A stretch of DNA of 64,000 nt from Saccostrea cucullata (Eukaryota): the NCBI RefSeq assembly GCF_032062105.1, contig NW_026929284.1, positions 186,001-250,000 on the forward strand, given 5' to 3'. Under the pieces are notes generated by a model, which searched no databases, was not told where the DNA came from, and was given only the letters and a program-made list of their open reading frames with translations. The position numbers were made by a program, and so were the translations under genes. Each line of letters begins with the position of its first letter. Positions within the stretch are counted from its first letter, which is position 1. Shown here piece after piece: positions 7,456 to 50,420 of this stretch.

Positions 7456-10400
7456 TTATTGTCGCTGATAGAGATACAGGTAGGCCAGATCGCGTGGAGG
7501 GTGTTCAGACAAAGCCACTTTTTCGTCATTGTAGATAACCCAGCGCCCCTCCTTCTTGATGTGACAGACATAGTGGCCGACCATTGTAGAGGTTCCCATG
7601 TGGCTGATAAATGCCACCAGTTTATACTCTGTAACGAAAACATAAAATGAATAAAGTGGCAGTTAGGAAATTCAATAAGGAAAAGTTTCAGAAGCTATTT
7701 GAATTATAAGTAAAAACACTAAGAAACAATGTTGAGTTTTTATCAGTTCAAATTTTATGAAAGTTTGTACCATTATGTTTATGTCTTGATTTTTAATCCA
7801 TTACCAACACTTACTGCCTATAGACGTTTGATACATTGCCTATATGTAGACGTTTGATACATTGCCTATATGTAGACGTTTGATACATTGCCTATACGTA
7901 GACATTTGATACATTGTCTATATGTACACATTTGATACATTGCCTATATGTACACATTTGATACATTGCCTATATGTACACATTTGATACATTGCCTATA
8001 TGTACACATTTGATACATTGCCTATATGTAGACGTTTGATACATTGCCTATATGTACATGTTTGATACATTGCCTATATGTACACATTTGATACATTGCC
8101 TATATGTAGACGTTTGATACATTGCCTATATGTAGACATTTGATACATTGCCTATATGTACACGTTTGATACATTGCCTATATGTACACGTTTGATACAT
8201 TGCCTATATGTACACGTTTGATAATTGCGTATATGTACACGTTTGACACATTGCCTATATGTACACGTTTGACACATTGCCTATATGTACACGTTTGATA
8301 CACTGCCTATATGTACACGTTTGATACACTGCGTATATGTAGACGTTTGATACATTGCCTATATGTAGACGTTTGATACATTGCCTATATGTAGACGTTT
8401 GATACATTGCATATAAGTAGGCGTTTGATACATTGCCTTTATGTAGACGTTTGATACATTGCCTATATGTAGACGTTTGATACATTGCCTATATGTAGAC
8501 GTTTGATACATTGCCTATATGTAGACGTTTGATACATTGCCTATATGTAGACGTTTGATACACTGCCTATATGTAGACGTTTGATACATTGCCTATATGT
8601 AGACGTTTGATACATTGCCTATATGTAGACGTTTGATACATTGCCTATATGTAGACGTTTGATACATTGCCTATATGTAGACATTTGATACACTGCCTAT
8701 ATGTAGACATTTGATACATTGCCTATATGTAGACATTTGACTTACTGCCTTCCCCGTCCCTGTACGTTGTATTGGGTACCGTGTCTCCCCCAGCCTCTGT
8801 CTCCATAGGAGTGTCCAATTCATCAGTGTGGCTAAATATCCAATCTACTGCCCTCTCTACATTGTTATCCTTCAAAGAAACACATTCATGTCAAAATCTC
8901 CCATCATATACCTAGTGTTTTCCTTTTAATTCAAAGTAAAGGATTAGAGATGAATTGTAACAGGCTTTGAGCTGAGGTTTCTGTAGACCTCACAACAATT
9001 AAACTTTGATTTTTTAAAATTCAAAGTGGCAATTTGTCAATTGAAGTGGTCAATTTGGCCGGTAGCCGGTTCTTACGGAAAACCTGTATACCTAGTACAA
9101 AAGAATACGTAACTGGGTATTTACAACATTGTCACTTTTCAGGATTCTAATACATGTATGAGGATTACAAAGAAAAACACACACACACACACACACAAAT
9201 ATACACCTTTTGCTTGAAACTTGAATCGTAGTTCTAATATAATCATTAATCTTTGCATACATACAGTGTTTTTAAGAGCTTTGATGGCCTGGTCTCTATT
9301 AAACCCCATTGACATCACCATTCCTACTGCATCCTCATTGGGAACAAAACTTCCTGCTTTTGGTTTGCCACCAGGCGGAACAAACGGAGCGTTGAAATCT
9401 GTGTTAAAAAAACAGAAAATGAATTCTTACAGCATACATTTTCATCTGGACCTATAGTAAACATGTTTTACAAGTCTTTGTAATGGATTTCCATATCTAA
9501 ACACATAATAATAGGCATATATGTCAGATTAGGTTTTATTATTTTGTATGGAATGAGCTTAGTACCTATCCTGATCTTCCATGTGTTCCATGACCCAGTT
9601 CCTGACCGACAATGATTATGCTTTTATTATTTTAATGACCTAAGTACCTACCCTGATCTTCCATGTGTTCCATGACCCAGTTCATGGCCGGCTCCACCCC
9701 GCTGTTGTTTGTATTGAACACAGCCTTCTTACAGGCCTCTATGGGAAACCCCATCTCTACCAGCTGGGCTACCACTACTTCATCTATCTGAACTTCTGAA
9801 AAGAACAACCATATGTAACTATAATGCTCAATATTTCTTAATCACTTTACATAAAGTACATATATAAAGTACAGATAATAGTGTTTTGCAAAATACATTC
9901 TCCAATTTTAAAATGATAACATTTTAAATACAGTAAAACAAACATGCTTATAGTAAATTGGTAATTGCTACGGTATTTTAGGCCATTCAAAGTTTTTTCT
10001 AGTGTAGCATCTCCTTGGACCTTTGTTTTTGACAATCCAAATTGGGGAAAAAAAACCCAGGATTTTTAAAAAGAATATTCTGCTAAAATCTTTGAAATCT
10101 GGCTATTTCTCTGATTATTTGTCTACAACATGTCATATTGGGTATATTTTAAGCATTTAATACTTTAATTTTGCTGAAGATTAATCCCTTGAATGAACTT
10201 ATTTTTTGGGTCTCTGTTTTATTTTTTTTGATTTGTGTTTGTGTGTGATTTTTTTGTGAATAGGTAAGTAGAATTTTGAAAGCTGGGTAAGGCATTTAAC
10301 AGAAAAAAACTGGCCTTATGCTGTCCTACCCTGTGGGGCCTCAGACAATTCCTACATTTTTTGAGATGCTGTAAGTGTTGCCTTAACCTGTAGGGCCCCA

Positions 10401-47613: not shown

Positions 47614-50420
47614 ATGTCAGAGGCTCGTCCTTTTAAGATTTGGAATCATGAGCGGACTGTGAAAAAAGGAACTGTCGCATCTTCATTACAAGATTTACTC
47701 AGAAAAGGTTGATTTTTTTAGTATATCTATCTGATTCTTGATCAAGTTGGATTATGTATACCTATGAATAAGAATCTAATTAATATATGGTAACTTATCT
47801 GAGTGTCCAGATGGTAATGTATCTGTACACAAATATGATAAAACGAAGCTGTAGATTTATACTCACAGCAATCAGGTGTAAAATTTGATTGCACTACATA
47901 TATTACTCATATTAACTGACTCATAAGTAGTTTAGATATAATCAAAATATGTACTCGTAAAATTCAGACTATTTTTACCGTTATGTTCAGATCTTTGAAT
48001 TTCATATGGGGTAATTTTTTTTCAATTCATAAATAACTGTTACATTGTCTCTAAATATTTTGCAGCATATATTAATCTGATTATATTTGTAGGGAAGTCA
48101 TCACTGGGAATCCCCGAACCAGAACAAGTAACAGCAGTGTTGGAGGAAGATGGTACAGAGATTTCAGATGAAGATTACTTTGCCTTCATAAGACACAACA
48201 CCACCATCATGTTACTTAGAAATGGGCAAAAGTGGCAGCCAGTTGGAGCAGGTATAATTGTTTTACCACCATTTAAATTATCTGTGTATTATCAAGACTG
48301 TGTGACAATTTTATTTGTAAACTTTGATATAAAAAAGAGTTCAGTATCATATTTACCGGTATATTAAAGATGCATGTTTGCTTTGTTTTAGTGAGTAAAG
48401 CACTTGTAATCAAACACTAACAGTTAACTTTGTTTATTTGTAATTTTATTTTGTCCCCATATACAGTAAAACTCGGTTATAAGGAAGTCACTGGGACCTA
48501 TTAAATTACTTTGTTATAATATATCTGTAATTCATTATATCCGTATAAGGAATTTGCTAGATTCATATTGTTGACTCAAGGACCAACCTAGGGGGCGACT
48601 GAGGCGAAATAGTCGCTTTTGGGCTCCAAACTTCGCCGTACTTTATCTTGAAAGCGAAGTTTAAGTCGCCTTAACATTTGCAACCCCTTTATTAAAAATC
48701 TATTAAGAAACATGGTAGAATCATCAGTAGTTGATAAATCTTGTTTTATTACTGCTGAAATAAACCAAACAGCAGGACACTTGCACCTGTTTCGCTGCTA
48801 ATGACCAATGCATCGAATACTCTGTCGGAAATCCTCTAGATTTTACTCTTCCGGGTATGAAAAAGTCCAATTTTTACAAGTTATGCACAACCAGATGCGA
48901 AACAGCTGGTCAATTATCGATGCCATGCCAAAGATGTTGAAGATGGTTTTAGATCTTTTTATTGCCAAATAATTAATTCATGCTGTGAATACAGGCATAC
49001 TTTACTGTTAATTTGTGAAGTTATTGACCGTTTAAGAAATTACACATCCTGATATACCGAGTTCAATCAGCATGCAGTACGTAGTACATCAAAACTCTTT
49101 TCAGAAAAATTAAATGAAAACAAATTTTGAAGAGAAAATAACAAAATTATGACTATGCAATGAGCCCAAAAATTTAAAATGAAAAGATAGAATTTAATAG
49201 TTAACTGTGCATATTATGCAAGAAATGAAAAAAAAAGTCCGCACGCGCCAAGAAGTCTCCCTAAATTTCAAAACTTCTCCCTAAATTTTGGGTCTAGGTT
49301 GGTCCCTGTTGACTAATGAGATCCAAAATAACTTCGTGAATTCGCAATATCACGATATCCATGAATTTGCAATATCCATGTTCGTACTAAACGAGTTTTA
49401 CTGTATTGGAAAAATATTTTAAATTTTATCTTTTAAACAACAACAAGGAAACAAATTAACAAACTGAAATGCAAGCAACTGCATATAGTACAAATTCAAA
49501 ATTTTACAACAGTGGCTTGAAAAGGTTTTGAAGATTCTTTAGTACATCCAAAGATTTAATTTTATACAGAGAATCAGTTTGGGGGAGACGAGGTAGATAA
49601 TCTAGAGGCAGGAAGTGAGATATCAGACAGGATGAAGCAGTTAATAGCAGGCCTTCATAAAAACATCACAAGAATCATCACCCTGTCAAATGATGATCTA
49701 CAGGTAAAATTGTCAGATTGACAAAAAATGATATATAGGTCAAAATTGTCAAATCTGCAGTTCAGTAATAAAATAATCATACTTGAACTGATACTGGTAA
49801 ACTTATCAGACTGAAAAAATGTGATCCATACGTCAAAACTGTCAAATTTGCAGTTAAAATAATCACACTGTCAATTGAAACAGGTAAAATTGTCAGATTC
49901 AAATGTCAATGTGATGCTCGGGAAAATTCATCTCTGTCAAATGATGATGCATATGCACACTGTCAAGTCAATGGTGTAAATGAAACCATTACATCATTGT
50001 CACATGAAGTCATTACAATATATCAAGATGATAATTGACAACCAATCTCAGACTGTAAAATATTTTTAACTCTCATCTAATGATTCTTGAAGCTTCAATA
50101 TCATTGTGCTTATGTATTTTTTTTTTTTGGTGAAACTTATTAACATGAACAATTAATCAATATCCTAAATATTAATCAGATTTTCCCCCCCTGGATTTTT
50201 TCAGATCATTGTGGGTATGGATGTCCCAATGCTGGCTAACTTGCTGCAGGATACAGAAAATTTCGCTAAATCCATTCAGGAAGCCTGCCAGCGCCACTTA
50301 GATGAACGTAACCAGACCTCGGAGGCTATGGATCTGTTAAGACTTTATCACACCGCCCGACAGTCCAGTCCTTATGTAGAGGATACAGGTCCAAAACGTA
50401 AAAAACATGCACACACGTAA
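47614..50420 (+). CDS. DFFA: DNA fragmentation factor subunit alpha (ICAD/DFF45)-like, 4 coding exons, 200 aa
   Basis: Exons 47614-47707, 48093-48251, 49570-49703, 50205-50420 (603 nt). CIDE-N domain (RPFKIWNHERTVKKG...LEEDGTEISDEDYF...LLRNGQKW), DEVD caspase site, DFF-C-like helical region (LSNDDLQ...IQEACQRHLDER) and C-terminal basic NLS PKRKKH. Confidence 0.88.
48464..49403. mobile_element. Tc1/mariner-type MITE (TA TSD) with a nested element
   Basis: TA-CAGTAAAACTCG / CGAGTTTTACTG-TA. Confidence 0.78.
48577..49308. mobile_element. Nested TIR element with 6-bp TSD
   Basis: CAAGGACCAACCTAG / CTAGGTTGGTCCCTG; TTGACT on both flanks. Confidence 0.8.

Follow-up and report, generated by a model that had tools for sequence, protein, structure and literature searches.

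Why have the junctions between exons and introns been copied into the neighbouring introns in three different genes of one short genomic region? We asked this for a 64,000-nucleotide stretch of the genome of Saccostrea cucullata (assembly GCF_032062105.1, contig NW_026929284.1, positions 186,001 to 250,000, forward strand; the window, with all positions counted from its first nucleotide), in which an initial annotation had described six such junctions in USP5, PEX14 and DFFA. We assign a probability of roughly two in three to the reading that the six stretches are "mirage" repeats, that is, local duplications in which the copied segment contains a splice junction, and that they are harmless clutter skipped by splicing. 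A regulatory role is unnecessary to account for the data. This type of repeat has already been named and published; what is new here is its rate of about 3% of the junctions, an enrichment of about 2-fold, the absence of decay specific to GT/AG, and a tentative peak of repeat edges close to the junction.

The exon chains of four genes were picked from the coordinates by the AG/GT rule, and their frames were then checked. The rebuilt models comprise 31 introns (62 junctions), and all frames are open, so that the coding frames of USP5, PEX14 and DFFA are untouched, as the initial annotation had stated. Each junction was scored by its best ungapped intron-ward copy, which had to extend 5 bases or more to either side of the junction. 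In this uniform scan, a copy within 1 kb was found at 5 of the 62 junctions, with scores of 45–135, and the copy of the USP5 exon-15 donor (score 36, at 5.4–5.6 kb) is the sixth case; the remaining junctions scored no more than 21 within 1 kb. All six previously described junctions were thereby recovered. In every one of them the repeat unit spans the exon-intron boundary and the splice signal, again as described, with an exon overlap of 5–42 bp. The units lie head-to-tail beside the source junction, directly for USP5 exons 11, 16 and 18, PEX14 and DFFA (degenerate in the last), and for USP5 exon 15 once a TTAA-flanked insert is subtracted. An origin of the six units from a dispersed transposable element, which had been doubted from the start, is excluded: other sampled loci match the six arrays over 0–8% of their length, versus 82–100% for two inserts described below, and genome searches with the USP5 exon-15 array and the exon-11 stretch located neither repeat anywhere else. 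The USP5 exon-10/11 stretch is single-copy in the 1.17-Gb assembly, in which a second haplotype of the USP5 stretch was not found either.

USP5 (isopeptidase T; coding span 7456..29134, minus strand, 19 coding exons, open frame of 798 amino acids) hosts four of the six junction copies. At the exon-18 donor (real donor 8745), an array at 7809..8750 on the minus strand contains about 35 units of 26 bp. The earlier description of an 11-bp repeat around a 26-bp array was right about the former: the array ends 931 nt downstream with an exact 11-bp copy, whose donor (7814) is intact. The 26-bp unit, however, is no separate repeat but the junction, with 5 exon and 21 intron bases. GT is lost in 30 of the 34 scored inner copies and the other four score 0.3 bits, whereas the distal decoy equals the real donor (7.1 versus 7.1 bits). 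The inner units are uniform and the end units divergent, which suggests that slippage or unequal exchange turned some copies into minisatellites. The exon-16 donor (9651; donor and copy at 9552..9690, minus strand) has a single copy, 82 bp into the intron, in which GT has become AT. The exon-11 donor (22654) heads an array of 2.6 copies of a 69-bp unit (22518..22696, minus strand); the one full copy keeps its GT but has lost the context, scoring −0.2 bits versus 7.0 for the real site. The unit lengths given before for these two junctions, as well as for PEX14 and DFFA, hold.

The exon-15 array (10318..10540, minus strand) consists of four copies in units of 57 or 51 bp with about 15 exon bases each, three of which keep GT. 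The length of about 57 bp previously assigned to the unit is therefore nearly right, but the array is split from its exon: the copies lie 5,394–5,559 bp away from the real donor that is their source (15888, within 15878..15904, minus strand), because a 5.3-kb transposon was inserted within the array. This dispersed DNA transposon (10541..15873, no strand assigned, 5,333 bp) sits inside the first unit and has TTAA on both sides, GG..CC termini and short inverted repeats; each of its ends has at least 40 matches in the genome (the window's own included), many of them paired on one contig. When 5,337 bp are subtracted, the distances of the copies resolve to spacings of 57, 51, 57 and 57, which implies that the array is older than the transposon. 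A TTAA duplication, RR..YY termini, terminal inverted repeats and many genomic copies are also given for Kolobok transposons in their description (PMC9587614), and by its termini the insert appears Kolobok-like. We use only this qualified name because neither a transposase nor KolX was identified in the one frame scanned, an 88-amino-acid frame without any match in Pfam. The region is a multi-copy transposon rather than a host gene nested within USP5 intron 15; it includes degenerate exon-like pieces and further nested repeats.

In PEX14 (39198..45185, minus strand, 9 exons, open frame), the copied junction is the exon-6 acceptor (exon start 41057), which lies together with three near-perfect copies of a 33-bp unit at 41033..41165 (minus strand; decoy acceptors at 41090, 41123 and 41156). 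As for USP5 exon 15, the unit had been recognized and the interruption had not: a non-autonomous dispersed element of about 0.8 kb (41166..41950, no strand assigned), fully matched by other sampled loci, separates these copies from six further, more diverged units (41951..42149, minus strand; AG kept in five). Altogether, AG is present in eight of the nine copies, three are near-identical to the real site, the decoy acceptor scores as high as the real one (5.3 versus 5.3 bits), and each added unit brings an in-frame stop. The first copy beyond the element agrees with the exon of a related lineage at the synonymous positions 41042 and 41046, where the exon of this genome differs, which suggests that the array predates those two exon changes. 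In DFFA (ICAD; 47614..50420, plus strand, 4 coding exons, open frame), the exon-3 donor (49704) lies at the head of an array of degenerate units of about 90 bp with two junction copies (49682..49970, plus strand), both intact as decoy donors: the one at 49797 scores 5.9 bits, and the one at 49884 reaches the 8.0 bits of the real site. Splicing at any of the intact decoys in the window would meet a stop within 2–15 codons.

These arrangements are consistent with a simple course of events. A local duplication that includes a splice junction would leave the original junction at the exon and place the copies in the intron. They would be tolerated because splicing probably takes the exon-adjacent site and because a transcript spliced at a decoy would soon run into a stop. 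Transposons would later have inserted into two of the arrays, an order that the restored spacing shows for exon 15.

To what extent is the window typical? The frequency of junction copies was estimated from 160 regions around kinase and Ras hits elsewhere in the genome, annotated by a spliced profile aligner built for the analysis. After removal of 12 near-duplicate loci, and with at least 10 bits and at least 30 nt demanded of both flanking exons, the main sample comprised 507 introns in 140 genes, all with kinase or Ras domains. Of its 1,014 junctions, 31 carry a copy (20 donors and 11 acceptors, a difference that is not significant, P 0.15), and these are distributed over 25 of the 140 genes (18%), with borderline clustering (6 genes with two copies versus 3.0, P 0.04). 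A replicate of 18 of 20 further regions contributed 4 of 110 junctions in 55 introns. The pooled rate is thus 35 of 1,124 junctions in 562 introns, or 3.1% (confidence interval 2.2–4.3%). The impression that six of about 62 junctions is a high number is correct insofar as five or six of 62 is about three times the sample rate (P 0.04 or 0.012 without a correction for selection), but the window was selected for this very feature, and its high rate is therefore unremarkable.

Several sampled loci deserve description. In a tyrosine-kinase gene, L159 (G000:C8586:150000-159999), two large arrays of 27-bp units hold about 50 donor and about 72 acceptor copies, with GT/AG intact in nearly all. In L168 (G000:C12537:283500-293499), the intron before the catalytic-loop exon contains a 57-bp copy of exon sequence that has an AG of its own, is 78% identical and apparently keeps the frame; it could be a duplicated alternative exon or a remnant, so that one of the 31 sampled copies is perhaps no mirage but a duplicated exon. 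A 27-bp donor duplication occurs in both probable alleles (L217 and L225) of a Rab gene and should therefore be older than the split of the alleles. Further probable allelic contigs are L067/L070, L075/L076, L082/L084, L172/L177/L180, L211/L212 and L218/L221, with proteins 97–100% identical and with introns that show about 7% substitutions and length differences of up to 4-fold.

Are junctions copied more often than would be expected by chance? An event-level null was used, in which each non-dispersed duplication unit is placed uniformly, event by event, because large arrays, and the distant ends of arrays at junctions, inflate position-wise controls. Among the non-dispersed duplications in the sampled introns, 24 of 80 events span a junction versus 12.9 expected (P 0.0004), and the ratio stays at 1.6–2.2 when the thresholds are varied and at either of two mask levels. 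Fewer junction cases are recovered in this way than by the direct junction scan. Without repeat masking, the enrichment is 1.2–1.4x (P 0.03–0.25). Detection bias through conserved exon bases is excluded as the whole cause, as 24 of 69 events reach the splice site versus 10.8 expected when only intron sequence is used for detection. A control with pseudo-junctions at −70..−5, which also counts edges that do not reach any junction, did not separate junctions from interiors (0.027 versus 0.008–0.031 for shifts of at least 80 bp). Taken together, the results support an approximately 2-fold excess of junction-spanning copies over uniform placement, in line with the initial annotation's impression of a high number.

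Either mutational seeding or selective retention had been proposed as the source of such an excess. Part of it is likely to be passive, because a pair of copies should be recognisable for longer when its exon-side source is shielded from mutation and deletion. In forward simulations of two-copy events, with exon and splice bases protected and indel sizes taken from seven near-identical gene pairs, lifetimes were prolonged 1.9–2.2x for overlaps of at least 16 bp, 1.2–1.4x for edges at −15..+4, and hardly at all (about 1x) inside the intron. For deep overlaps (at least 16 bp), 14 events were observed versus 13.8 under passive retention, which supports retention as their explanation. A further part of the excess is probably due to duplications that end preferentially at or close to the splice site: 21 repeat edges fall at −15..+4 versus 7.9 under retention (scan-corrected P 0.0004), and after gapped re-alignment 18 versus 7.8 (scan-corrected P 0.012). 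The window of −15..+4 was chosen after seeing the data, and in the replicate, for which the analysis was set beforehand, there were 2 such edges versus 0.6 (P 0.12; 17 events, 10 of them from one intron). The peak at the edge is therefore a tentative lead, not a result, and it fits the mutational alternative to that extent only.

A stronger version of this idea holds that splice sites are duplication hot spots, at which splicing-linked breaks or polymerase slips put one end of a duplication within about 15 bases and so explain most of the excess; putative mechanisms include R-loops, pausing, nucleosome edges and RNA-templated repair. The 21 edges at −15..+4 compare with 7.1 under uniform placement and with a per-base rate at +5..+80 that is 3.2x lower (95% confidence interval 1.7–5.9). 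The edge excess appears in Ser/Thr kinases (10 versus 3.7) and in Ras genes (8 versus 1.5), the excess at splice sites persists with the intron-only detection cited above, and introns without an indel near the junction still have 17 edges at −15..+4 versus 5.6. Mis-annotation is an unlikely cause of the peak, because the junctions are mostly in conserved motifs without indels. The signal is, however, weak in Tyr kinases (3 versus 1.9), the edge window was post hoc, the prespecified replicate was not significant, and the enrichment shrinks as described when masking is omitted. Among young duplications in the near-identical gene pairs, only one tandem duplication, in mid-intron, was present among 262 indels, too few for power. 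We consider the hot-spot account doubtful, and hardly less so the broader proposition that duplication ends within about 15 bases of a junction occur 2–3x above origin plus retention and point to splicing-coupled breaks or slippage seeding mirages across animals.

It is very improbable that there is no real enrichment at all, and that unmasked transposon DNA and fast turnover of intron interiors create the excess, with the window as a selected extreme. Self-comparison could mask only about 24% of the sampled DNA, the signal weakens without masking, the members of near-identical gene pairs have introns of very different length, and the window does exceed the 3.1% rate as described. Yet positions just inside the intron fit the expectation (8 versus 9.1 at +5..+30 and 17 versus 17.0 at +31..+80), unlike the junction, and the replicate points in the same direction (edges at +4 or further in, 4 versus 1.2, P 0.02).

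If the copies are clutter, what happens to their splice signals? The degraded donor copies noted before are a feature of the window, mainly of the exon-18 array; in the sample, GT/AG is intact on average in 86% of the copies (31 events) or 74% (24 flank-defined events). As the copies mostly keep GT/AG, most of them are not being purged. Excess decay of GT/AG, which had been suspected, is not supported: the mismatch at GT/AG is 0.084 versus 0.131 in the flanks for the 31 sampled events (an ascertainment that favours intact cores), and 0.18 versus 0.21 at other core positions and 0.07 in the flanks for copies defined by their flanks (24 junctions, some with spurious registers, the flank value being biased low). 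In RNA from the related lineage, in which six PEX14 introns are confirmed as read joints, PEX14 exon 5 is joined to the exon-proximal acceptor of exon 6 in 42 raw reads (18, 11 and 13 in three runs of one study) and in a contig, and no decoy joint was among the joints listed.

That selection maintains the decoys as unproductive-splicing switches, with poison donors or acceptors leading to nonsense-mediated decay (NMD) and tuning USP5, PEX14 or DFFA, is about as improbable as the absence of enrichment: decoys equal the real sites at PEX14, DFFA and the distal end of the exon-18 array, and all would give early stops, but an intronic extension of AT-rich DNA yields a stop anyway, the decoys at USP5 exon 16, exon 11 and most of exon 18 are dead, the PEX14 joints listed include no decoy, and mirages and F7 pseudo-sites are silent in the published accounts.

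Three points weigh against tolerated clutter that accumulates passively. The core outside GT/AG is more diverged than the flanks in the flank-defined copies (0.21 versus 0.07, P 0.009, with the low bias of the flank value), which may indicate weak selection against decoys or a mild erosion of the core. The RNA comes from a lineage whose exons diverge from those of the window by several percent and in which the arrays may be absent, and the check covers the PEX14 acceptor only. Finally, the edges at −15..+4 exceed the 1.2–1.4x of retention (18–21 versus 7.8–7.9), so that a purely passive account is incomplete.

Intron growth, splice-site sliding and regulated splicing had been named as possible consequences. 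The growth is real but small, as junction arrays make up about 7.3 kb of the 343 kb of sampled intron (2%). Sliding of splice sites into the arrays is not supported, as junctions with copies are not richer in nearby indels (19% versus 16% for other junctions). A new intron or a shifted exon end was seen neither in the six cases nor in the kinase and Ras sample, and none of the observations demonstrates intron gain, sliding or a regulated use of the decoys. Intron gain and gene remodelling by internal tandem repeats are reportedly the subject of Zhuo 2007 and of Gao and Lynch 2009.

The gene names rest on Pfam domains: among 10 single-exon pieces, zf-UBP, UCH and UBA were found for USP5, Pex14_N for PEX14, and CIDE-N and DFF-C for DFFA, with DFF-C under the cut-off; two of the pieces had no match, and PEX14 exon 6 gave only weak matches, all under the cut-off. 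The fourth model, a three-exon gene with an open frame (31915..35977), resembles, we presume, CDCA3; its exon 1 has no Pfam match. A possible eroded seventh case is located at its exon-1 donor near 32141, where a 13-bp piece of the exon-1 end recurs about 50 bp into the intron, under the threshold. Within the USP5 introns there are four related non-autonomous elements with 166-bp satellite arrays and a tetranucleotide tail (16011-17745, 21010-22482, 23219-24690 and 29340-29745), which may be Helentron-like, and a fold-back at 28110-28545, spotted by eye, in which about 170 bp are repeated inverted. At 4033-4310 on the minus strand lies the first coding exon of a further gene that extends past the left edge of the window.

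How do the oyster arrays compare with known systems? In the amphioxus "mirage" minisatellites (Adh3, the globins BflGb6 and BflGb9, troponin C and PGBD5), the units span a splice junction and splicing is normal, according to the reports (PMC3087553, PMC3902484). The two systems share tandem units of tens to about 150 bp that span a donor or acceptor and part of the exon, AG/GT in many but not all copies, homogenised inner and divergent end units (here in the USP5 exon-18 array), and perhaps a normal mRNA. The oyster arrays differ in belonging to another phylum, in that two of them are split by later transposons, and in that a frequency and a null have been estimated. In the literature covered, with subscription journals outside that coverage, neither a bivalve mirage nor a mirage frequency or genome-wide null was found. 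Mirages are known from a few lancelet and human genes, and here they occupy about 3% of the junctions and occur in 18% of the sampled genes. The genome thus offers a natural collection of rival splice sites, among them near-identical acceptors at which scanning that takes the most upstream site would be expected to mis-splice; as a caution, decoys can mislead gene predictors and read mappers. If the edge peak holds in young variants, splicing would be linked to where DNA duplicates.

Two further systems bear on the choice of splice site. In the 37-bp variable number tandem repeat of human F7 intron 7, the most upstream of identical donors wins, as mutagenesis in mammalian cells has shown (Borensztajn 2006, PMC1557585). 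There, as here, the first unit spans the exon/intron donor and pseudo-donors lie downstream, which in F7 are functional in principle. By analogy, this rule would provide a ready explanation for five of our six cases, if valid in molluscs. Acceptor arrays such as that of PEX14 are outside the F7 case, and we infer that they would need exon definition or NMD instead. Internal tandem repeats at exon borders have also been described as suppliers of cryptic splice sites (De Grassi and Ciccarelli 2009, PMC2812944); the oyster arrays likewise carry cryptic splice sites at exon borders, but with no new intron or shifted exon end in the six cases or in the kinase and Ras sample.

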